In this document: piece after piece, positions 1-25,320 of the stretch
Position numbering within the stretch: position 1 is the stretch's first letter
Layout of the letters: each line of letters begins with the position of its first letter
Assembly (NCBI GenBank): GCA_024276305.1
Contig: JAJRXK010000108.1
Span: 8,172-72,171 of the forward strand
Direction of reading: 5' to 3'
Length of the DNA stretch: 64,000 nt
Source: Candidatus Krumholzibacteriota bacterium
GTDB taxonomy: Bacteria > Krumholzibacteriota > Krumholzibacteriia > JAJRXK01
Made by a program: the position numbers and the translations under genes
Notes under the pieces: generated by a model
What the model was told of the DNA's origin: nothing
Database searches by the model: none
What the model saw: only the letters and a program-made list of their open reading frames with translations

Positions 1-1461
1 CAACCAGTTGTTCGTCTGGCGCACGTCCTCGGCATCCATGTCTTCGCGCAGGACCACCAAGAGATCGAAGTGTCGCGCGGCCCTCGTGTTGACGCTCACT
101 CTCAGCAGCCGAAAGTTTCCTCGGGCCTGGACCCGCGAAATCCACAGACCCGCCGCCGCGATGTGTTGGACCCGGAATTCCTCTTCCTCGTGGGCGAGGA
201 TGACGGCCTGTTCGAGAAAGGAGGTCTCGCACACCAGGACTCGCATTCGCTCGCGGGTCGGGAGATCCACGTCGTCGTCGAAACGTGCGATGCGCTGCCA
301 CTGTTCGGCTTCGAGGTCCACGTGCTGGCGGTCGAGTCTCTCTTCGAACCACAGGAAGTTGCGGGCCAATTGGGTCTGGGCGAAGGCCGCGAGTTCCTCG
401 TCCTCCCCCAGCAGGATCCAACTCGCCAGCTCCGCCCGGACCGACTTGTAGTAGATCTCCTGGTGACGGACGAAGTCGCCCAAGAGGGTCAGGATGTGCT
501 GAATCTGTTGCCTCACCACCGGCCGCGCCGGCCATTCGATGCGTCGGCGGTATTCGGAGAGTCGACGACGCAGGGCGGTCAACCGACGGGGACCCACCGA
601 GGCCCGGGCCAGGATCTGGATGCTCTCCTCGTTGAGAAAACTCAGACCCGAGTCGAGGAAGTGCCCGAAACCGGGGTCCTCTTCGGCGGCTCGGCGATCG
701 AGGAGGAGAATCCGGTAGGCGAGACAGCGGAGCTCTTCACTCGGGTGACGCGCCAGAGTGGCGAGTCGGCTCCGGAGGACGGAGGCCAGGCGCTCGTCCA
801 ATTCGGGCAGGTCCCGCCCCAATTCCTTCAATTCGGTGCGGCAGCGTTGGTCCTCCCCCAGAAGCGCCTCCGCCAGGCGGCGGTGGAAGCGGCGCAGCTC
901 GGGAGGGAGGCCCGAGCCCAGATCATCGACTCCCCGATCCCTCCGGGGGGCGTGGTCATCGGGCAGCAGCAGGATCGAATCCCAGGGGTCGGATCGGACG
1001 TCCCATCCCGCACGACAGGGGACCGCAGCGAAGAGCTGGGCGTTGCCCAGCCAGAGCCGAGGTTGCCGGGCCAGCACCCCGAGGTCGACGACCCATGCTC
1101 CCTCTTCGGGGGGTCTTCTGCAGGAGTAGACGAAGTCGCCGATCTGCACTGCCCGGTCGGAGGTCCGGGAGATCCGGAGAAAACGGGCGTGCCGCAGATC
1201 CTTCAGGCCGTCGGGGAGCGCCACCCAATCGCTCTCGAGCGAACCCAGATCGCGGAGGATCCACCGGGGCAGTCTCACTCGGATCCCGTCGATCTCGTGC
1301 TCGAGCTGGGGACTGCGGTAGAGCTCGGCGATGAGCTCGGCGAAGTGCTCCTGGATCACTTTTCGCCGGTAGGTCTGCTTCGGCGTCAGCTCCCCGAGCT
1401 GCGGATCGAAGTCCCGGCGGAGCAGTGCGAAGTCGATGACTCTCTCGAAGGGGGCGAGAGA
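1..1461 (-). CDS. Continuation of acyl-CoA ligase reading frame past in-frame TAA (conserved ligase C-terminal motif, then >=430 aa uncharacterised extension); partial, runs off left edge
   Basis: Minus-strand frame immediately after the TAA at 1462-1464 reads SLAPFERVIDFALLRRDFDPQLGELTPKQTYRRKVIQEHFAELIAELY..., which matches the extreme C-terminus of ACSL/FadD-type ligases. The frame stays open with GC3-rich codons and protein-like composition to position 1. It is absent from the ORF track only because no stop lies inside the window. Confidence 0.6.
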
Positions 1462-3210
1462 TTAGTTCGCCGCGGCGATGATGCGTTGGAAGTACTCTCG
1501 TTCTCGGTCAGGAGTGCCGAGCTGCGCCAGCACCGCGTCCTCCCGGTCGGGAACGATCAACAGCACATTCCACGAACGGTGGTCTCCGACGAGGAAGGCC
1601 CGTCGCACTCCGGCCGTCTCCTCCAGGATGCGCTCGATCTTTCGAGGGGCGATGGTCTGGCCTCGGTCGTTCTTGTAGATGTCCTTGATGCGATCGACGA
1701 TCTGGAGCTGCCCGTTCTCCAATTCGCGGAAGAGATCGCCGGTTCGGAGCCAGGTCTTGGGAGAAGCTTCGGGGCGGGGCAGACAGACCAATCCCTCGGC
1801 GTCGGGATCGAGGTAGTCGGCGACATAGGGCCCTCCGATGCTCATCTCTCCCTGGGCATCGAGGACGAGGTCGATCCCCGGCAAGGGCCTTCCCACGCTG
1901 TCGTCGACATAGTCGCCCGCCGGACTCATGGTGATTCCCCCCGTCGCCTCGGTCATGCCGAAGCCGCTGCAGAGCTCCACTCCATGGCGGTGGAAGAAGC
2001 GGAAGATGCGGGGGTCGAGGTAGCCCGCGGCGGAGAGTCCCCACCGCAGGCCCGAGCCCACGACCTGCCGCAACGCGGCCTCCTTCTCCTCTCCCGACGA
2101 GACCCGGTCCATGGCCTCGAGGCAGCGGTCCCGCATCTGTTTCCACCGCAGCGGAATGCCGATCAGGCCGGTGGGTTCGACTTCGGGGAGCGCACTCAGA
2201 AAGGTCTCGGCCGAAGTGTTGCCCACGAAGACATAACGTCCTCTCCAGTAGAGCATGGCCAGGAGTTCGAGGAAGCGACCGAAGGTGTGGTAGAGCGGAA
2301 GGTAGCAGAGCAGGATCTCGTCGCGTCCGACCGCCGGAAGCGCCGCGGCCCGACAGAAGCGCTTGGTCACGAGGTGGAGGTCGGTGAAGGCCACTCCCTT
2401 GGGGCGGCCAGTGCTTCCGGAGGTGAACATCACCGTGGAAATGGCCCGGGGATCGACTTCGCGGCGATCGGCCAGGAGCGATTCGACCTGTTGAGGAGAG
2501 AGGGCCGCGGCCAGATCGTCCAGACGTTCGACATCCCCGGTTCGGACCCAGGCACTGTCCTCGAGAGAGAGGATTCCGAAGGTCGACTTCCCCTTGCGCC
2601 GCAGATCGCAGAGCCTCTGCTGCCGTTCCTCGGTATCGGTGACCACGAGGTCGATGTCGAGGCGGCGGAGAATCCAGTGGAGGTGGTCGAGGGGGGTGTG
2701 CACGCTCAGCGGGGTGACGACGATGCCCTCGGTGAGGCATCCCAAGTCGCAGCAGGCGCCGGCCACGGAGTTGTCCAGGTAGAGAGCCACCCGGGGGCGG
2801 TCTGAGGGTCCCTCCTCGTGCCGACCACGAGCGATGAAGGTGGCGGCATAGCGGCGGGCCCGTTGACGCAGGGGTCCCACCCCCCAGCTGCGCCGGCCGG
2901 TCGCGGTCGCTTCCACCAGGTAGACCCTCTCGGGATCTTCCTCCGCTCGTCGCTCCAAGAGGGTGCCCAAGGTGTAGCGACTCCGCTCGATGAGGCGGAT
3001 GCAGAGCGGCGCCCACACCTCATCCCGCGATTCGCGGTCGAGAGCCCCGAGGAAGTCGGGATCGCTGGTGAGGTCGAGAAAATCGTGGGCCAGGTCGCGG
3101 GGAAGGGACGCGGGCTCGGCGCGAGAGAAGGCGCGCAGGAGGGACCGCGCGAGGTCGCGGTCGCGACTCTGCGACCACTCGCTCAGTCGGCGTCGAAGGG
3201 CATCGTCCAT
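1462..3210 (-). CDS. Long-chain-fatty-acid--CoA ligase (AMP-forming), terminated prematurely by in-frame TAA
   Basis: 582-aa ORF with the AMP-binding signature TSGSTGRPKGV, a TGD motif (WLRTGDL) and IVDRIKDIYKNDRGQTIAPRKIE. It stops about 50 aa before the expected end of the family. Confidence 0.85.
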   Translation of the reverse strand: MDDALRRRLSEWSQSRDRDLARSLLRAFSRAEPASLPRDLAHDFLDLTSDPDFLGALDRESRDEVWAPLCIRLIERSRYTLGTLLERRAEEDPERVYLVEATATGRRSWGVGPLRQRARRYAATFIARGRHEEGPSDRPRVALYLDNSVAGACCDLGCLTEGIVVTPLSVHTPLDHLHWILRRLDIDLVVTDTEERQQRLCDLRRKGKSTFGILSLEDSAWVRTGDVERLDDLAAALSPQQVESLLADRREVDPRAISTVMFTSGSTGRPKGVAFTDLHLVTKRFCRAAALPAVGRDEILLCYLPLYHTFGRFLELLAMLYWRGRYVFVGNTSAETFLSALPEVEPTGLIGIPLRWKQMRDRCLEAMDRVSSGEEKEAALRQVVGSGLRWGLSAAGYLDPRIFRFFHRHGVELCSGFGMTEATGGITMSPAGDYVDDSVGRPLPGIDLVLDAQGEMSIGGPYVADYLDPDAEGLVCLPRPEASPKTWLRTGDLFRELENGQLQIVDRIKDIYKNDRGQTIAPRKIERILEETAGVRRAFLVGDHRSWNVLLIVPDREDAVLAQLGTPDREREYFQRIIAAAN

Positions 3211-3363
3211 CGTGACCTTGGCATTCCTCGCGGTGGGATCCGCCCCGTACTCTGCGGCAAATCGCAGGCCGCGTACACGCCAAAACTTCCCTTGCCAAGG
3301 GTCGAGGGCGGGTGGGAGATTGCTTCTCGCACCCCGTCTTGGACCTCACCGGAAGGAATCGAC

Positions 3364-3711
3364 ATGCGCAGTCTCCACGCCGCGTTCTTCCTGTCCTTCG
3401 TCGCCTCGACCGTGGTGCAGTGGAACGATCCGGATTGGTTGCCATGGATGGCGATCTACGCGGTGGCCGCCTGGGAGAGCGGACATGCGGTCTTCGGACG
3501 ACAGGAGCGAGCCCGGGCCCTGGTGGTGGCCTTGGTCGCCCTCGCCTGGCTCACGAAGATCGGACCCGAAGCTCTGCACGGAGATTGGGTCTTCAACGAG
3601 GTGCAGCGCGAGAGCGGAGGCCTGCTCCTGGTCAGTCTCTCGATGATGGCGGTCTGGCACAGTCCGGTCGAGGTCTCGGATCGACTCGCGGATCAGTCCT
3701 CGAGAAACTGA
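3364..3711 (+). CDS. Small hydrophobic membrane protein, hypothetical
   Basis: ATG preceded by GGAAGGA. 115 aa with 3-4 predicted TM segments (FFLSFVASTVV, ALVVALVALAWL, LLLVSLSMMAVW). Confidence 0.5.
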   Translation: MRSLHAAFFLSFVASTVVQWNDPDWLPWMAIYAVAAWESGHAVFGRQERARALVVALVALAWLTKIGPEALHGDWVFNEVQRESGGLLLVSLSMMAVWHSPVEVSDRLADQSSRN

Positions 3712-4388
3712 TCGAGGAGTTCCTCGAGGACTTCGTGGGACCGAGCAAAACGGTCTGGGCGAGCCAGGATCTCGGTGGGAGATTGGACGTAGGGGCCCTC
3801 TCCGTCGAGATCGTCGGGGCACATCTGGATCAACTGTTCCGCGCCTTCGGGAGTCATCTCCAAGTGGAATTGGATGCCCAGGACGCGGTCGCCCAGACGG
3901 AAGGCCTGGTGGGCACAGCCCCGGCTGCGGACGAGTCCGACCGCCTCTTCGGGGAGGGTGAAGGCCTCGCGGTGCCAATGGAAGACCTCTTCGCTGCGGA
4001 CCAGGATTCGGCCCAGAGTCTCCATGGCGTGACCTTCGGCGGCCTAGATGCCGAACCAGCCGATCTCGGCCTGTTCCGCGGGCCGAATCTCCGCTCCCAC
4101 GGCCTCCGCCAGAAGCTGGGCTCCGAGGCAGATGCCCAGGATGCGGGCCTGGGTTCGCAGGGCTTCGGTCAGGAACTCCTTTTCGGCGGCCAGCCAGGGG
4201 TGGTCCTCGAGGTCGTGGACGCTCATGGGCCCGCCCATCACCACCAGCAGATCGACCTCGTGGGGATCGGGAAAGACCGCGCTCTCCCAGCTCCGGGTGG
4301 CGGAGATCTGGGAGGCCCGGCCCGCGAGGAGGGGCCGGAGGTGACCCAGTCCTTCGAAGGGTGCGTGCTGGATCCAGTGAACGCGCAA
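3693..4388 (-). CDS. Class I glutamine amidotransferase (GATase1-like) interrupted by an in-frame TAG at 4044-4046
   Basis: The N-terminal fragment carries VMGGPMSVHD...ILGICLGAQLLA (catalytic Cys motif). The C-terminal fragment carries VFHWHREAF...GIQFHLEMTPE (His/Glu region). Both are in one frame, separated only by TAG. TTG start at 4388. Confidence 0.75.
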
Positions 4389-5427: not shown

Positions 5428-5646
5428 CGTTTTCTCCTCTCTCGCAGAAGCCCGATCGGGGCGGCATTGCAGACTCCATGGTCGCCCATTGAACCCCGCC
5501 TGGGGCCATTCCACAAGGGCGACACTTCTCCCCGCCTCCATGGACTTCCAGCCGCCGATCCTGCTACACTGGGGAGTCTCGTCTCGCCAGCAGCGCGCCC
5601 TGCGCGTTTGCGCACTTTTTCTGCCTTCAACCTCTGGAAGTCCACC

Positions 5647-7419
5647 GTGCGCTCCCGATTCATCTCCGCATTGAGCATCGCTTCACTCCTGCTTCTCTCA
5701 CTGCCCGTGATGGCGGGCACCCTCGCTCCGATCCTTCCCGACGGGGACTTCGCCGAGTGGTCCACCGTTCCCACCCTGGGGGTCGACCCCGCCGGCGATG
5801 GTGGCACCGTGGATTTCGGCACGGTCTGGGCCGCCAACGACCAGGATTGGTTCTACCTCCGCTTCGAGGTCGGGGGAGAGATCCAGCCCGACGAAGGGCA
5901 GGATGTGGTCCTGTACCTCGACACCGATCTGAACAGTTCCACCGGACAGTCCATCCAGGGGATCGGGGCGGATCTGGTGTGGGAGTTGGGGCTCCGCAAT
6001 GGGACCTTCTACACTCCCTCGGCCAAATCCGTCGGTCACGCCGACGTGGGCCTTCGCATCTCTCCCACGGTGAGCAGTACCGAATTCGAGATGGCCTTCG
6101 ACCGCAATGCGCTTCCCGCTTCGGGGAAGAGTCTCTTCCCCGGGAACTCGGTGCGCGTGGTCCTCGAGGATCGAAACGGAGGGGATACCGCACCCGATAG
6201 CGGAAGCTATCTCTACGACTTTGCGGCCGGAACCCTCACTCCGGCCACCCTCCCCACCAGTCGGGCGGGCGCGAGCCACCTCCGTATGGTCACCTGGAAC
6301 ATCCAGAGCGACGGCCTCTTCAGCGGAGGATCGACCGAGGCGGCCCAGCAGCGCATGTCCCAGGTGATGGATCCCGACATCTTCCTCTTCGAAGAGGTCT
6401 GGAACCACAACGCCAATGATGTGGCTGCGCAGGTCGAAGTCCTTCTTCCCAGCGGAGCGGGTCAGACCTGGAATGCGATCAAGATCGACAGCGGCAATGT
6501 CATCTGCACTCGGCTGCCGATCCTCAACAGTTGGGAGATCTATCCTGCGCACCGCCTCACCGCCGCTCTCCTCGACGCCAGCAGTAGCCTGGGCCAGGAC
6601 GTGCTGGTGATCGCCAATCACTGGCGTTGTTGCACCGCCGATGCCGAACGTCAGAACGAAGCCGACGCCCTGGTGGCCTTCTTGCGCGACGCTCGGACGC
6701 CGGGCGGAGTCATCGACCTGGCCCCCAACACCCCGGTGATCATCGGGGGAGACTTCAATCTGGTGGGGTGGGCGGCCCAACTCACGACCGCCATCACCGG
6801 CAACATCGCCGACAATGGAACCTGGGGTCCGGACAGTCCTCCCGACTGGGATGGATCCACTCTGGACGTGGTGCCGGCCCGACATGTGGACGCACGGGAG
6901 TCCTATACCTGGCGGCGGGACAGCAGCTCCTTCTACGCCGGGCTCCTCGATTGGATGTTCTACACCGCGAGTGCCGTGGAATTGGGCAATCACTACGTTC
7001 TCGAGACGCGGACGATGAAGTCCAGCACCCTCGGTGCGCTGGGTTTGAATGCCGATGACACCATCGTCGCCAGCGACCATGCGCCCCGGGTCGCGGACTT
7101 CTTCATCGCCCAGAGCACCGGAGCCGATCCCACGCCTCGGGCCCCGCATCTGGGCTTGGAGATCTATCCGAATCCGGCCAATCCCCGGGCTCGCATCCGC
7201 TTCGAACTCGGACAGAGCTCGGAAGTGGAATTGAGCATCTACGATGCCGCGGGCCGCTTCGTACGGACTCTCCACCAGGGCGCCCTCGGAGTCGGGACTC
7301 ATGAATACGTGTGGGACGGCACCGATGCCGCCGGCCGTGAAGTCGCTTCCGGAGTCTACTTCGTCCAGGTGCGTGGAGATCGGGCCCATCAGACCAAGTC
7401 GCTGGCGCTGGTGCGCTGA
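5647..7419 (+). CDS. Secreted endonuclease/exonuclease/phosphatase (EEP) family protein with T9SS-type C-terminal sorting domain
   Basis: Signal peptide FISALSIASLLLLSLPVMAG after a GTG start. EEP core (MVTWNIQSD..., VIGGDFN, ASDHAP). Last ~85 aa LEIYPNPANP...VELSIYDAAGR...ASGVYFVQV match the Por-secretion/FlgD-Ig-like C-terminal domain. Confidence 0.75.
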   Translation: MRSRFISALSIASLLLLSLPVMAGTLAPILPDGDFAEWSTVPTLGVDPAGDGGTVDFGTVWAANDQDWFYLRFEVGGEIQPDEGQDVVLYLDTDLNSSTGQSIQGIGADLVWELGLRNGTFYTPSAKSVGHADVGLRISPTVSSTEFEMAFDRNALPASGKSLFPGNSVRVVLEDRNGGDTAPDSGSYLYDFAAGTLTPATLPTSRAGASHLRMVTWNIQSDGLFSGGSTEAAQQRMSQVMDPDIFLFEEVWNHNANDVAAQVEVLLPSGAGQTWNAIKIDSGNVICTRLPILNSWEIYPAHRLTAALLDASSSLGQDVLVIANHWRCCTADAERQNEADALVAFLRDARTPGGVIDLAPNTPVIIGGDFNLVGWAAQLTTAITGNIADNGTWGPDSPPDWDGSTLDVVPARHVDARESYTWRRDSSSFYAGLLDWMFYTASAVELGNHYVLETRTMKSSTLGALGLNADDTIVASDHAPRVADFFIAQSTGADPTPRAPHLGLEIYPNPANPRARIRFELGQSSEVELSIYDAAGRFVRTLHQGALGVGTHEYVWDGTDAAGREVASGVYFVQVRGDRAHQTKSLALVR

Positions 7420-10678: not shown

Positions 10679-11098
10679 ATGAGACAGGCTTCGACCACCT
10701 TTTGCATCGGCACTCCGGGACCGGGAACGATCGAGTTCACGGACCGGGTGCGCCAGTGGCTCGAGCAGGAGTCGGTGGTGGAGGGACTGTTGACCCTCCA
10801 CATTCGTCACACCTCGGCGTCGCTCTTGTTGCAGGAGAATGCCGACCCTCAGGTGCAGCGAGATCTCGAGCGATTCTTTCGGCGCTTGGTCCCCCCGGGG
10901 GATCCCCTCTTCGAACACGTGGCCGAGGGTCCCGACGACATGCCGGCCCATGTGCGTTGCGCTCTCACCACCACCCAACTCTCGATCCCGGTGGTCAGGA
11001 GTCGTATGGTGTTGGGGACTTGGCAGGGGATCTTCCTCTTCGAACATCGCGACCATCCCCATCGGCGGGAGGTCGCAGCCCACTTTCTGGGAGAGTAA
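10679..11098 (+). CDS. yjbQ: YjbQ/UPF0047-family protein (secondary thiamine-phosphate synthase-like)
   Basis: LLTLHIRHTSASLLLQENADP...DDMPAHV...GTWQGIFLFEHR. Start is 1 nt after the upstream stop (TGAgATG). Confidence 0.8.
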   Translation: MRQASTTFCIGTPGPGTIEFTDRVRQWLEQESVVEGLLTLHIRHTSASLLLQENADPQVQRDLERFFRRLVPPGDPLFEHVAEGPDDMPAHVRCALTTTQLSIPVVRSRMVLGTWQGIFLFEHRDHPHRREVAAHFLGE

Positions 11099-11101
11099 GA
11101 G

Positions 11102-11608
11102 ATGTCGCAGAAACTCCGCCGGGGATTCCTGGTTCTCATCGGAATCTTCGCCGTGGCCCAAGTCTTTCAGCCCGATCGTCAGCCTCCTTCTCCTTCGGCC
11201 TCCTCGATCTGGGACGAGCCGACTCTGCCGACGGAGGTCTCGGCGATCCTGTCCCGCGCCTGCTCGGATTGCCACAGCAACCGGACCGAGTGGCCGTGGT
11301 ATTCTCGGATCTCTCCCATCTCCTGGCTGGTGGCTCACGATGTCGACGAGGGGCGCGGCCATTTCAACTTCTCGCAGTGGAGTGACTACGAGCCCTACCG
11401 TCGCTACAAGATTCTCGAGGAGATCTGCGAAGAAGTGGAGGAGGGAGAGATGCCGCTGGCGATCTACCTCCCGCTGCATCCCGAGGCCAAGCTCGATGCG
11501 GAGGATCTGAGGACTCTCTGCACCTGGACCCGGACCTGGATGGACGAACTCCGGCCGCAGATCGGGGATTCACCGGACCGGTCCGAGGATCACGATCACG
11601 ACGATTGA
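11102..11608 (+). CDS. Haem-binding-domain protein
   Basis: N-terminal TM, CSDCHSNRTEWPWYSRISPISWLVAHDVDEGR signature. Confidence 0.7.
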   Translation: MSQKLRRGFLVLIGIFAVAQVFQPDRQPPSPSASSIWDEPTLPTEVSAILSRACSDCHSNRTEWPWYSRISPISWLVAHDVDEGRGHFNFSQWSDYEPYRRYKILEEICEEVEEGEMPLAIYLPLHPEAKLDAEDLRTLCTWTRTWMDELRPQIGDSPDRSEDHDHDD

Positions 11609-20934: not shown

Positions 20935-23900
20935 TCAGGGAGATCCGTCCTCCAACGGAAGCCCAAGAGCCCAAAGGAGTTGTGCTCGCCTTGACTGGAG
21001 TTGGGCCTGGGCCCGGACCCAGCGGCTCTCGGCCCGGGTGCGGGCCGTCTCGGCGTCGAGGAGGCGAGTCAGAGTGGCCCGGCCTTCGCGGTAACGGAGT
21101 TGGATCACCCGATAGGCTTCGGCCGCGGCCCGTCGGCCCTCAGAAGCCGCGGTCAGCTGGGCTTCGGCCGTCGAGAGGGCGGAACGGGCGACTTCGATCT
21201 GTCGGCGGATCTCGCGATCGCGGCGGCTTCGCTCGTACTCGGCCTGCCGGGCCCGGGCTCGGGCTCGGGCACTGCGGGCGGAGATCTCTCCCCCCGACCA
21301 CGGGGTCCAATGCAAACCGGCGGCGAGGTCCACCGAATCGTCCCGGAGTTGCGGGTCGGCCTCCGGCCAGAAGGTGCTCCATCGGGCATAGGCCACGACT
21401 TCGGGCCAACGCTCCCGGTGGGCGGCTTCGGCCTGGGCCTGGGCCCCGGCCAGTCGGTGGGTCGCGGCCTCGAGTTCCGGACGCCGCGGCGCCTTCACCC
21501 CGAGGGGCTCGGGGGGGACCATCACTTCGGAAGCTTCGGCCAGGGGGGGCAGCTCCTCGAGGGGGATCCCCAGGAGTTCGGCCAGGAAGGACCTCGCTTC
21601 CGTCCAGGCTCCGTGGGCCGCCACCCGAGCGGCGCGGACTTCGGCCGCCCGTGCTTCGAGCTGGAGGAGGTCGGCCTCGAGAGCTCTTCCGGCTTCGGCC
21701 CGCAGGCGGGCGTCGTCCACTTCGCCTTGGACCAGGGTCAACGCCGATTCCTGGACCCGCACTTCGGCCCGGGCCGACTGGACGAGGAAGTAGACTCGGG
21801 CCAGATCGACTTCGAGCTGTCGAGTGCGGGCTCGATGCAGAGCCTCTTCCGACTTCCATTGGAGGCGGGCCGCGCGAATCGAGGACTCGCGGGAAGCGCT
21901 GAAGATCTGCCAATCCGCTCGGGCCTCGCCGGTGATCAGATTCACGCTGGCATCGGGATCGAAGGCCAACAGATCCTCGGGGCCGCGGATGTCGCGGAGT
22001 TGCACTCCGAAACTCTGAGCGGGATCACTGGTGCGCAGGAAGTTTCCCGACACCGACAGGCGTGGCCAACGCGCGGCGCGAGCCAGCCCGTAGTCCGCCG
22101 ATGAGGCCTCGACCGCAGACTCGGAGATCGCCCACTGGGCGTTGTTCGCGCGCAGGTGCCCGAGGGCATCGTCCAGGCTCAGCTCGGTCGCCGTGGCCGG
22201 CACCGTCCCCCCCAAGGTCCACAGCCCGAGCAGTACTCCTGCGGTGGTGAGGCCTCCGAGCCGGCGTCGACGCCCGCGGCCGGCGACTTCGCGCCGCATG
22301 AATTCGAGGGTGAGTGCGGGCACCAGAACCAGCGTGACCACCGTCGAAGCTCCGAGCCCGCCGATGACCACCCAACCCAGGGGTCCCCACATCGATCCGC
22401 CGAAGAGGGTCAGGGGCAAGAGCCCCGCTTGCGTGGTGAGGGTGGTGAGAAGAATGGGCTGCAGTCGGGTCTGGGCTCCGCGGCGGACGGCCTCGGACAG
22501 TTCCATTCCCTCGCGCAGGTTCCGGCTGATGCGGTCCACGAGCACGATGGCGTCGTTGACCACGATGCCGGTCAACGCGAGGAGCCCGATGAAGGCGGTG
22601 AATCCGAACGGCCAGCCACTCACCAGCAGTCCGACCACCGCTCCCGCCAGCGCCACCGGGATGCTGGTGAAGATCACGAAGGGCAACTTGAAGGACGAGA
22701 ACTGCAGCACCAAAATGCCGTAGATGAGCCCCAGGGCGATGAGCACATTCTGGAGCATGCTCAGAAAGGCGCGATCGCGTTCCTCGTCTTCGCCGATCAC
22801 TTCCCAGGATTCGCGGCCGTCGAGGGGGAGCCCTTTGACGGTGGGCATGAGGTCGGCCACGATCTCCGTGGCCAACCGGCCATCGAGATCGGCCCCTACG
22901 ACCACCGATCGTTCGAGGTCGGTGTGCATGATCCGCGCATAGGTCGGCGCCAGCCGCGGGGAGCTCAGTGACGAGAGGGGAACCGGAGCCGAACCTGCCA
23001 CCGGAATCCGGATGCGGGCGAGGTCGTCGAAGCTCTCCCGACCCTCGGGGGCGACGCGGACCACGACGTCGATGTCCTCGTCCTGACGGCGCAGGGTCGT
23101 CGCCGTCGCCCCGGCCATGGCCACCCGGATCTCCGCCGCCACCATTGCGGTTTCCAACCCGGCGCGTTGGACCTTGACCGGGTCCAAGCGGAGGTCGAGG
23201 CGTGGCGGACCGGGTTTGAGATCGTGCGACACATTGATGGCGCCGGGAATCTCGTGTAGCGCGGCGGCGAGCTGGTCGGCGTGGGCCCGCAGGCGTTCGA
23301 GGTCGGGGCCCTTGAGGCGAATCGAGACCGGCATTCCCACCGGGGGACCCTGCACGAAGAGCTTGGTCTCGAGGTCCAGTTTCGGGTGCTGAGCGAAGGC
23401 GCGGCGGATCTCCCGGGCGAAGTCGGGGATCTCTTTCGACCGGGATCGGGGGACGGTGACCAGCAATTCGGCAAAGTTCGCCTGCTCGAAACTCCGAATG
23501 ATGTTGTAGTAGGTAAGGGGATTTCCCTTGCCCACGTTGGTGGTCACGTGCACCGCCATGTCCTGGGCGCGGACAAAGTTCTCGACTTCGATGGCGGCGG
23601 CTTCGGTGGCTTGGAAGTTCGTCGCCTGGGGAGTCTTCACTCGAATCAACAGCTGCGGTTTGTCGTCGGCCCTCGGGAAGAAATTGAATCCAACCTGAGT
23701 GCTGAGGGTCATCACCAGGGCCGACGCAACGAAGATGGTGAGAATGGTGGTCCGCGGCTTGCGGTCCAAGGTCTCCAGCACTCGAGCGTAGAAGCCCTGG
23801 GAGGCGAAGCGATTCAGCGCGGGTTGGAGCCCCTGCGGTCGGGCGGCCGCGTCGGTGGCGAAGAGGCGTGAGGCGATGAGTGGGGTCGCGAAGAGGGCCA

Positions 23901-25320
23901 CCGCCAGGCTGACGAGGAGCACCACCGAGACCACCGAGGGAATGTCGCGGGTGAAGTCTCCAACGGACCCGGCCATGAAGAGCATGGGCACGAAGGCCGC
24001 AATCGTGGTGGCCGTGCTGCTGGTGATGGCCGAGGCCACCTGCCCCGTGCCTTCGATGGCGGCGTCGCGGGCGCTGCGTCCCCGATGTCGTTCGTAGAGA
24101 ATCGCTTCGAAGACCACCACCGCATTGTCGACCAAGAGGCCCAGCACCACCACCAGACCGGCGATGGACATCTGCTGGAGAGAGATGCCGCAGGATTCGA
24201 GGAGCCAGAAGCTGATCCCGACGGCGAGGAACATGGCCGTGGAGGCTACCACCGCGGCGCGCCATCCCACGAGAAGGACGACGAAGAAGACGATGATCCC
24301 CGCGCCCTGGAAGAGGCTCATCCCGAAGGTCGACAGGCGGGCGTGCACGTCCTCGCTCTGATCGAGGACGATCTCGGCCTGGATGTGAGAGGGAAGACTC
24401 TTTCGAAAGTCGTCGAAGCGGTCGCGGGCGGACTCGGTCAGCGCGAAGACATTGCGGCCTTCCTTCAGAGTGGCAGTGACGAGAGTGGCCGGTCGGCCGT
24501 CTTGCCGGACCAAGTAGGTCGCATCTTCATATCCCCAGCTCACGGTGGCAAAGTCGCCGAGGCGCACCGGTCTTCCGTCCACGCTCCGCAGAACGGTGTC
24601 GCGAATCTGGTCGAGCGTCTCGAAACGCGAATTGGGCCGGATGCTCAACTTTCGGGGACCGGTCACCAGAGTGCCGCCGGGGAGGTCTCCGTTGGCCGAC
24701 GCGAGCGCGGCCATCACTCGTTGCAGGGTCAGCCCGGCGCTGGCCATTCGGGCGGGATTCACCAGCACTTGCACTTGGGTGTCCAATTCTCCTTCGACTC
24801 GGACTTCCTTGACGTCGGGCAGAGTGTTCCAACGGTCCTGGAGTTCTTCGGCCCAATCCCTGAGCTCTTCGGCGGTGGCGGTGGAGGAGGAGATCGCCGC
24901 CTGCAACACGGTGACCGAAGAGGGCTGGATCGAGCGCAGGGAGAGTTCGACCACTCCCTGCGGGAGGTCCGCCTGGACCGCGTTCACGCGCTGGACGAAT
25001 TCGTCGTAGGCATTCTCCTTGTCGGAATCATCCACCCATTCCGCGGTGATCACCGCTACACCGTCCGCCGCAATGGACTCGATGATCTCCACGTCCTCGA
25101 GTTCGTGGATGGATTCTTCGAGGGGCTCGAGCACGCGATTCTCGAGCTCCTCGGGGGTGGCTGCGGGATAGATCACGGTGACGATCCCGCCGAAGGAAGG
25201 CAGCTCCGGGTCTTCTTGCCGAGGCATCTTCAGAAAGCTCACCGCGCCCAGGACGACCGCGGCCAGGGTCAGGACGATGACGAAGCGGTAGTTGGCGAAA
25301 GCAAACCGGGTGGGATTCAT
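20935..25320 (-). CDS. Single 1461-codon ORF: RND permease (25320..22300) fused in-frame, with no stop, to a TolC-family outer membrane factor (22299..20935) that retains its own ATG and signal peptide
   Basis: The RND part ends ...LVPALTLEF. It is followed immediately by MRREVAGRGRRRRLGGLTTAGVLLGLWTLGGTVPATA|TELSLDD and TolC repeats to the stop at 20935. Confidence 0.8.
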   Translation of the reverse strand: MNPTRFAFANYRFVIVLTLAAVVLGAVSFLKMPRQEDPELPSFGGIVTVIYPAATPEELENRVLEPLEESIHELEDVEIIESIAADGVAVITAEWVDDSDKENAYDEFVQRVNAVQADLPQGVVELSLRSIQPSSVTVLQAAISSSTATAEELRDWAEELQDRWNTLPDVKEVRVEGELDTQVQVLVNPARMASAGLTLQRVMAALASANGDLPGGTLVTGPRKLSIRPNSRFETLDQIRDTVLRSVDGRPVRLGDFATVSWGYEDATYLVRQDGRPATLVTATLKEGRNVFALTESARDRFDDFRKSLPSHIQAEIVLDQSEDVHARLSTFGMSLFQGAGIIVFFVVLLVGWRAAVVASTAMFLAVGISFWLLESCGISLQQMSIAGLVVVLGLLVDNAVVVFEAILYERHRGRSARDAAIEGTGQVASAITSSTATTIAAFVPMLFMAGSVGDFTRDIPSVVSVVLLVSLAVALFATPLIASRLFATDAAARPQGLQPALNRFASQGFYARVLETLDRKPRTTILTIFVASALVMTLSTQVGFNFFPRADDKPQLLIRVKTPQATNFQATEAAAIEVENFVRAQDMAVHVTTNVGKGNPLTYYNIIRSFEQANFAELLVTVPRSRSKEIPDFAREIRRAFAQHPKLDLETKLFVQGPPVGMPVSIRLKGPDLERLRAHADQLAAALHEIPGAINVSHDLKPGPPRLDLRLDPVKVQRAGLETAMVAAEIRVAMAGATATTLRRQDEDIDVVVRVAPEGRESFDDLARIRIPVAGSAPVPLSSLSSPRLAPTYARIMHTDLERSVVVGADLDGRLATEIVADLMPTVKGLPLDGRESWEVIGEDEERDRAFLSMLQNVLIALGLIYGILVLQFSSFKLPFVIFTSIPVALAGAVVGLLVSGWPFGFTAFIGLLALTGIVVNDAIVLVDRISRNLREGMELSEAVRRGAQTRLQPILLTTLTTQAGLLPLTLFGGSMWGPLGWVVIGGLGASTVVTLVLVPALTLEFMRREVAGRGRRRRLGGLTTAGVLLGLWTLGGTVPATATELSLDDALGHLRANNAQWAISESAVEASSADYGLARAARWPRLSVSGNFLRTSDPAQSFGVQLRDIRGPEDLLAFDPDASVNLITGEARADWQIFSASRESSIRAARLQWKSEEALHRARTRQLEVDLARVYFLVQSARAEVRVQESALTLVQGEVDDARLRAEAGRALEADLLQLEARAAEVRAARVAAHGAWTEARSFLAELLGIPLEELPPLAEASEVMVPPEPLGVKAPRRPELEAATHRLAGAQAQAEAAHRERWPEVVAYARWSTFWPEADPQLRDDSVDLAAGLHWTPWSGGEISARSARARARARQAEYERSRRDREIRRQIEVARSALSTAEAQLTAASEGRRAAAEAYRVIQLRYREGRATLTRLLDAETARTRAESRWVRAQAQLQSRRAQLLWALGLPLEDGSP

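Follow-up and report, generated by a model that had tools for sequence, protein, structure and literature searches.

A ligase gene on the minus strand of the window (the whole stretch of DNA that was analysed, 64 kb in length) is interrupted by an in-frame TAA that lies inside a conserved domain, and the same frame continues beyond it intact and conserved. TAA and TAG are normal terminators in this window, and a second gene nearby is also interrupted by a stop. The explanation that we place first, and in which we have even confidence, is that a very recent nonsense substitution created the TAA in a fusion gene of about 1,540 aa, so that the sequenced population carries a loss-of-function allele. 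An in-frame nonsense pseudogene is an ordinary kind of event.

As the first-pass annotation had reported, a 582-aa ORF (positions 1465 to 3210, minus strand, from ATG 3210 to AAC 1465) ends at the TAA (1462 to 1464, minus strand) and the frame carries on after it. This ORF, which is an entry as a predicted protein on the NCBI contig, contains the AMP-binding domain and the start of the C-terminal subdomain. The codons around the stop are GCG AAC TAA TCT CTC GCC CCC TTC GAG AGA (nucleotide context GCGAAC TAA TCTCTCGCCCCCTTCGAGAGA on the minus strand, the base after the TAA being T), and past the stop the frame reads ...N*SLAPFERVIDFALLRRDFDPQLGELTPKQTYRRKVIQEHFAELIAELY.... The reading frame is unchanged across the TAA and continues for 487 codons (positions 1 to 1461, minus strand), with neither a second stop nor a frameshift, until it runs off the window, and it encodes the rest of the C-terminal subdomain and a conserved middle region. 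The coding score per codon is high on both sides of the stop (0.32 and 0.38). Because the score is equal on the two sides and just two stops interrupt genes in the 64 kb, we regard the ligase stop as more than chance.

The same first-pass claim that the stop lies inside the homology, rather than at its end, was confirmed by the domain profiles and by an ungapped alignment with 120 homologues. The N-terminal AMP-binding domain is recognised by PF00501 (residues 85-463, nt 2958-1822, minus strand; 170.6 bits against a cut-off of 29.9; profile positions 1-379 of 384). The AMP-binding_C_3 subdomain (PF23562) scores 14.2 bits on the truncated 582-aa ORF, below its cut-off of 20.8, and 37.4 bits on the read-through translation (residues 517-633, positions 1312 to 1662, minus strand; profile positions 9-122 of 124), where it is split by the stop at residue 583. 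No single uninterrupted ORF holds the complete C-terminal subdomain, which is obtained when the TAA is read through. The adenylation domains of solved carboxylic acid reductases (6oz1, 5mso) align straight across the stop, as far as ...AELY, and the segment matching the end of this domain in the solved relatives sits 3' of the ligase stop.

The motif after the stop had been taken for the last ~45 residues of an ACSL/FadD-type ligase, a protein of about 630 aa. Neither part of this description held, since the 487 further codons reach the window edge and the homologues extend to ~1,540 aa; the motif ends the subdomain and not the protein, and the gene is the start of a ligase/middle region/GNAT fusion. 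Members of this family consist of a ligase (the first ~635 residues), ~800 residues without a Pfam hit and then, usually, a C-terminal GNAT. The window holds the first ~1,070 codons of the fusion gene; the GNAT part would fall beyond window position 1, and membership here rests on the ligase and the middle region. The best 120 homologues are single polypeptides, nearly all of 1,480-1,600 aa (typically about 1,530-1,570), whose colinear matches span 96-100% of the 1,070-residue query, with identities of 42-66%. A literature search for the ligase/middle region/GNAT fusion architecture found no relevant paper.

In the alignment with these homologues the stop occupies exactly one column of an ungapped region. 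The column is variable (Q29, A21, R19, E16, K8 and S7 among the 120) and is flanked by an invariant Asn at -1 and a near-invariant L-A-P-[YF]-E-R at +2 to +7. Gln, Glu, Lys and Ser each have a codon one base change away from TAA. Orthologues, to which the first-pass annotation had pointed as a check, carry a sense codon at this position, the closest one (locus L009) having GAG (Glu) opposite the stop, and neither the 120 homologous proteins nor 11 homologous DNA loci show a stop at this column. Under the nonsense substitution that we favour, a single base change would very recently have turned a sense codon, probably GAA (Glu) or CAA (Gln) in the ancestral ligase, into TAA. With the standard bacterial code translation would then end after residue 582, and the truncated product would lack the second half of the ligase C-terminal subdomain, the middle region and anything encoded beyond the window. 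We infer that cells really carry the stop base, with no error involved, and that the shortened ligase protein is inactive; the result would be a loss-of-function allele, that is, a nascent pseudogene, in the sequenced population.

The frame downstream of the stop shows no decay. Identity to the homologue P0001 is 63.6% upstream of the stop and 68.9% downstream, and in a relative-rate test the interrupted ligase and P0001 have the same identity to the outgroups. At columns that are at least 95% conserved, the interrupted ligase deviates in 6 of 195 and P0001 in 5 of 190, within a range of 0-7 deviations among intact homologues. The absence of both decay and a second lesion indicates that the event would be recent, and the ligase gene, if it is a pseudogene, is by its sequence a nascent one. 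An old, decayed pseudogene is ruled out by the relative-rate and conserved-column tests and by the 487 codons without a stop or frameshift. The full lack of decay would be equally expected of a functional ligase gene whose stop is read through.

The second interruption affects a class-I glutamine amidotransferase (GATase) gene (3693 to 4388, minus strand), which contains an in-frame TAG (4046-4044) 2.6 kb from the ligase stop; an intact TMEM220-family gene (3361 to 3711, plus strand) lies between the two interrupted genes. The GATase aligns to a 232-aa orthologue over 231 aa without gaps and at 64.5% identity, with the stop opposite a Glu, and PF00117 gives one continuous match (residues 43-183) across the stop at residue 115. 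In this gene, too, a substitution may have converted a sense codon, here into TAG. The TAG is embedded in CTAGG, a sequence that is the expected product (CAG to TAG) of deamination of the inner 5-methylcytosine in methylated CCAGG. The closest relative (L009) shares the gene order GATase-TMEM220-ligase. A functional link between the GATase and the ligase as the cause of a joint decay is unsupported, the adjacency being found just in L009 and absent from 10 more distant fusion-gene loci (L001-L006, L010-L013). The GATase stop speaks for a cause that is local (loss of function, or a problem of sequence quality) and against a device specific to the ligase.

Across the ~47 genes of the 64 kb, TAA 1462 and TAG 4044 are the sole stops that interrupt genes, as judged from coding signal on both sides with neither a gene boundary nor an antisense frame to account for them. 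The first-pass annotation had missed the TAG; no other in-frame TAA occurs in the ~47 genes. The remaining ~45 genes are intact, and those checked against Pfam have complete domains. A genuine TAA terminator (11096 to 11098, plus strand) closes the UPF0047 gene 4 residues past profile position 116 of 117; 3 nt further on, at ATG 11102, begins the next gene, which matches the whole Haem_bd profile. The AcrB gene stops at a TAG at profile position 1020 of 1021, and the OPT, OmpA-domain and DLH genes also close with TAG at their profile ends; twelve genes apart from the two interrupted ones terminate at TAG or TAA where their profiles lead one to expect it. The TAA above is the one genuine TAA terminator of the window, in which TAA/TTA trinucleotides number 32 on both strands and TTA is never used as a codon (0 of 19,520 codons). 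T9SS sorting domains are present among the window proteins, and one homologue is annotated Eisenbacteria; on these grounds we assign the lineage to the FCB group (Fibrobacterota-Chlorobiota-Bacteroidota).

Consensus, sequencing or assembly error is a possible alternative, to which we lend tentative credence. The T in the ligase TAA, like that in the GATase TAG, would then be miscalled in the deposited contig, with a sense codon in the cells; possible sources are low coverage at this place, a minority variant, strain collapse or an artefact of polishing. Perfect conservation on both sides of the ligase stop with no further lesion is consistent with such an error, as is the clustering of two in-frame stops within 2.6 kb while the other 60 kb are clean; had both ancestral codons encoded Glu, like those of the orthologue, each change would also be a G to T in the first base of the codon. 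The collections searched contain no close relative, as expected of an uncultured, metagenome-derived genome: the best protein relative is 66% identical, the top identity is 47% in the genome contigs searched and 50% in metagenome contigs, and all window proteins tested are singletons at 90% identity. However, overall consensus quality looks high, with 0 ambiguous bases in the window, no other broken gene among the ~47 and complete Pfam domains, and a generally poor assembly is disfavoured because the ~45 other genes are intact. Since random substitutions produce a stop in only a few percent of cases, two stops would imply many more errors in this region, yet the deviations at conserved columns given above are not raised, although this is a low-power test. 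There is also no sign of a systematic motif error, as CTAGG/CCTAG occurs 8 times in the window against 389 occurrences of CCWGG. Two fresh nonsense alleles within 2.6 kb, with the other genes intact, are above chance for a typical free-living genome, and a local sequence error fits this pattern equally well.

It is unlikely, in our estimation, that the stop is real and decoded at a useful rate, by near-cognate read-through or by an ochre-type suppressor tRNA, with some full-length ligase-GNAT and GATase being made. Both interrupted genes are otherwise under undiminished constraint, as decoding would require, but recency explains this apparent lack of decay equally well. An ochre suppressor tRNA with the anticodon UUA reads both UAA and UAG, the very pair of stops found here, both of them opposite Glu in the orthologue, and the rarity of TAA in the window agrees with decoding; no tRNA gene, however, was found within the 64-kb window. 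TAA-T, the context of the ligase stop, terminates strongly, being the most efficient termination context known in E. coli. A perfect 7-bp hairpin, UCUCUCG(N7)CGAGAGA (1441 to 1461, minus strand), begins at the first base after the TAA and includes the rare codons TCT and AGA. Its local z is -2.56, but in longer contexts z is +0.49 and -0.21, and since ~0.15% of window positions start a comparable 7-bp stem, the chance of one at the ligase stop is ~1%. The hairpin is not present in the homologous loci and has no comparable counterpart at the GATase TAG, so that as a recoding signal it was rejected; it is probably coincidental. Programmed read-through is unsupported in this case, in which the stop is not conserved in orthologues and no conserved downstream RNA element accompanies it. 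Nonsense mutation, error and bypass, as listed in the first-pass annotation, were the right set of options, but a translated or bypassed stop is disfavoured by the genes that end normally at TAA and TAG and by the absence of any stop at this column in the 120 homologues and 11 loci. Low-level decoding of UAA and UAG that the organism puts up with or makes use of, for example by a natural ochre-type suppressor inserting Glu or Gln in a genome with almost no TAA, would keep both the ligase-GNAT and the GATase functional, but this seems to us quite improbable.

We give still less weight to a functional split gene, whose two subunits would be the 582-aa ligase fragment and a downstream protein (middle region and GNAT) with an initiation of its own. 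An intact, conserved frame follows the stop, as this would require, but the break comes in the middle of the C-terminal subdomain rather than between domains. Going 3' from the stop, the nearest canonical in-frame start, read directly from the sequence, is a GTG (1357 to 1359, minus strand), and a restart there means the loss of 34 conserved residues (SLAPFER...ELTPKQTYRRK), past the most conserved motif; sequence inspection revealed no Shine-Dalgarno-like sequence 5' of this GTG. Orthologues that end at ...IIAAAN and are followed by a separate downstream gene, a case that the first-pass annotation had raised, were not found among the 120 best homologues, all of which continue past this position as single chains. 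The lowest probability goes to a variant genetic code that reads TAA, alone or together with TAG, as sense. The near absence of TAA from the window, the lack of TTA codons and the in-frame TAA and TAG in two conserved genes are compatible with it, but codon reassignment is effectively refuted by the genuine TAA and TAG terminators of the UPF0047, AcrB, OPT, OmpA-domain and DLH genes, and in-frame TAA or TAG affects just 2 of the ~47 genes. Ribosome hopping or frameshifting is rejected, as the frame is unchanged and the conserved SLAPFER directly follows the stop with nothing skipped.

The finding bears mainly on annotation: the 582-aa "ligase" and the downstream ORF belong to a single gene of ~1,540 aa and should be marked as one interrupted gene instead of two separate proteins, and the same applies to the two halves of the GATase. 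If the stops are real, an uncultured lineage has very recently lost two genes that lie next to each other. Wider interest would arise only under suppression, which we rated unlikely.

Several known systems resemble parts of this picture. Stop reassignment and natural nonsense suppression likewise place in-frame TAA and TAG in conserved genes, but in this window both codons terminate normally, 2 of ~47 genes are affected and no suppressor tRNA lies within it. The amber hotspots at methylated CCAGG, of which lacI is the classic case, are similar in that the GATase stop reads CTAGG; however, the GATase orthologue has Glu and not Gln, the ligase TAA is outside such a motif, and methylation of CCWGG is hypothetical here. 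The ordinary bacterial nonsense pseudogene (the "internal stop" class) shares with the ligase gene one in-frame stop in a conserved domain, uninterrupted orthologues and a frame that is colinear on both sides, whereas the ligase gene is extremely fresh, without a second lesion or measurable relaxed constraint in the 487 downstream codons. Among enzymes of the ANL superfamily, 6oz1 and 5mso are the closest solved structures and FadD13 and the luciferases are more distant; the likeness lies in the AMP-binding domain and the AMP-binding_C_3 C-terminal subdomain, and the difference is that in this family the ligase makes up just the first ~635 residues of a ~1,540-aa protein, joined to a middle region and usually a GNAT.

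The minus-strand ligase gene opens with an ATG at window position 3210 and runs for 582 codons to an AAC at 1465, where it meets a TAA (1464-1462); past this stop the unchanged frame continues for 487 stop-free codons to window position 1 and beyond the window edge. In Pfam searches the AMP-binding domain occupies residues 85-463 (170.6 bits), and AMP-binding_C_3 scores 14.2 bits on the 582-aa ORF alone, under the cut-off of 20.8, versus 37.4 bits on the read-through translation. The latter match covers profile positions 9-122 of 124 and residues 517-633, which places the stop (residue 583) within the C-terminal subdomain. Carboxylic-acid-reductase adenylation domains of known structure (6oz1, 5mso) also align unbroken across the stop, to ...AELIAELY. 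The ORF, the Pfam match and these alignments thus bear out the first-pass annotation, which had placed the TAA inside the ligase homology with an open frame after it.

Searching with the read-through translation gave over 2,500 homologues, of which the best 120 are all single chains that continue beyond the stop column, nearly all of about 1,530-1,570 aa. They consist of AMP-binding, AMP-binding_C_3, about 800 residues without a Pfam match and, usually, a GNAT domain at the C-terminus. Therefore the motif after the stop, previously described as the ligase C-terminal hallmark, does close the ligase module but is not the end of the protein, and the window holds approximately the first 1,070 of about 1,540 codons of a fusion gene. 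Source labels among the 120, where given, are Eisenbacteria, Acidobacteriota, Thermoanaerobaculia, Zixibacteria, Calditrichaeota and Methylomirabilis. The closest relative, P0001, comes from a Logan assembly and shares 66% identity, above which the protein database search found no relative; the best loci were 47% identical in the genome search and 50% in the metagenome search. In L009, the locus of P0001, the genes are locally arranged as in the window, with a class-I glutamine amidotransferase (GATase) gene followed by TMEM220 and the ligase gene.

We aligned the ligase gene with its best 120 homologues using MAFFT. The stop occupies exactly one column in an ungapped region, preceded by an invariant Asn (121/121) and followed at columns +2 to +7 by a nearly invariant L-A-P-[YF]-E-R. 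The stop column itself is variable in the homologues (Q29, A21, R19, E16, K8, S7), and all 120 proteins and 11 homologous DNA loci lack a stop at this position. A sense codon, which the first-pass annotation proposed looking for in orthologues, is present in P0001, with Glu at this column (encoded by GAG in L009), and in P0002, another ligase-family homologue, with Gln. A single substitution separates TAA from each of GAA, CAA, AAA and TCA.

By sequence comparison, the region downstream of the stop is not decaying. The query is 63.6% identical to P0001 before the stop and 68.9% identical after it, and on either side it is as similar to four outgroups as P0001 is. Among columns at least 95% conserved, the query departs from the conserved residue in 6 of 195 and P0001 in 5 of 190, against a range of 0-7 in intact homologues, and three of the six query deviations are shared in position with those of P0001; the coding score from codon usage is equal on the two sides. 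Because constraint is undiminished downstream, the event is very recent, or else the gene is still being read.

The first-pass annotation had also suggested counting in-frame TAA codons in other conserved genes. We scored every in-frame stop in the window for coding signal on both flanks, and only two sites with such signal were neither gene boundaries nor in antisense frames: the ligase TAA and a TAG at 4046-4044 that interrupts the GATase gene (3693-4388, minus strand), 2.6 kb away. Together the GATase halves (114 and 116 codons) form an ungapped alignment with the L009 orthologue (232 aa, 64.5% identity) in which the stop faces a Glu, and PF00117 gives a single continuous match across the stop. 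Both halves are intact apart from the TAG. Its context is CTAGG, which deamination of methylated CCAGG would yield; such an origin may be considered as a lead only.

The most likely reading, to which we give about even weight, is that a fresh nonsense substitution has created a loss-of-function allele of the ligase-GNAT fusion gene and that the adjacent GATase gene carries another fresh nonsense allele. A base error in the deposited consensus is possible, if less probable. The window has no ambiguous bases, and coding-signal scans revealed no further interrupted genes among approximately 47; of 23 uninterrupted genes compared with Pfam, none has a truncated domain, 21 having complete matches and two no match. 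Fourteen window proteins, the 582-aa ORF and the two GATase halves among them, were located in a collection of about 15 billion proteins, all as singletons at 90% identity, and the TMEM220 ORF, with boundaries as we drew them, had no exact match there.

Functional read-through or natural suppression at the ligase stop is improbable. A perfect 7-bp hairpin, UCUCUCG(N7)CGAGAGA (window 1441-1461, minus strand), begins at the first base past the TAA and could suggest recoding, but such stems start at about 0.15% of window positions, so that any given site has a chance of about 1% of one lying only a few bases away; moreover, the longer context is no more stably folded than shuffled sequence, no homologous locus has the hairpin, and nothing alike follows the GATase TAG. 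Part of the hairpin consists of two rare codons, TCT (5.9% of Ser codons) and AGA (2.2% of Arg codons); by our count from the sequence, 7 of the 37 AGA codons in the window lie in the ligase gene. The TAA is followed by T, and in E. coli TAA-T is the context in which termination is most efficient, which argues against programmed recoding. Hopping and frameshifting can both be excluded, as the frame is kept and the residues immediately past the stop are the conserved ones. A functional split gene is very unlikely: restart would need the GTG at 1359, at a cost of 34 conserved residues, and no Shine-Dalgarno-like sequence was seen upstream of it.

An altered genetic code is refuted, because TAA and TAG both terminate genes properly in the window. 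TAA is very rare here (32 TAA/TTA trinucleotides on both strands, versus 442 for TAG and 1,222 for TGA; TTA as Leu in 0 of 19,520 codons), and stop usage over about 47 gene segments is TGA 33, TAG 12 and TAA 2, counting both in-frame stops. A genuine TAA (11096-11098) ends the UPF0047 gene four residues beyond profile position 116 of 117, and the next gene, from an ATG at 11102, has a complete Haem_bd profile. TAG closes an AcrB-type pump gene at profile position 1020 of 1021 and a porin-like gene after ...GAGFIY; the OPT, OmpA-domain and DLH genes likewise end in TAG where their profiles end. No tRNA genes were found in the 64-kb window.

Elsewhere in the window, a 1,461-aa ORF (20935-25320, minus strand) fuses an AcrB-type RND pump and a TolC-like outer-membrane factor (OEP) in one frame. 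The RND part is complete (profile positions 4-1016 of 1021), and the OEP part comes with a Met of its own and a signal-peptide-like segment (codons 1008-1045), with no stop between the parts; either RND and OMF are naturally fused here or a stop codon was lost. Secreted proteins with FlgD_ig and Por_Secre_tail (T9SS sorting) domains are encoded at 5608-7419 (plus strand) and beside the orthologue (L009 1037-4222), and these domains suggest an organism of the FCB group (Fibrobacterota-Chlorobiota-Bacteroidota).

The interrupted ligase gene is an ordinary feature of an already well-known class, and its value is for annotation, which should join the fragments and mark them as a single interrupted gene. 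The family of about 1,540 aa to which it belongs (an AMP-ligase, about 800 residues without a Pfam match and usually a GNAT domain) is widespread, with its more than 2,500 matches extending across Acidobacteriota, Eisenbacteria, Zixibacteria, Calditrichaeota and others, and one literature search found no paper describing the ligase/middle region/GNAT architecture. Pat/AcuA-type acetyltransferases regulate AMP-forming ligases, and the GNAT domain fused to an AMP-forming ligase in this family recalls these enzymes.
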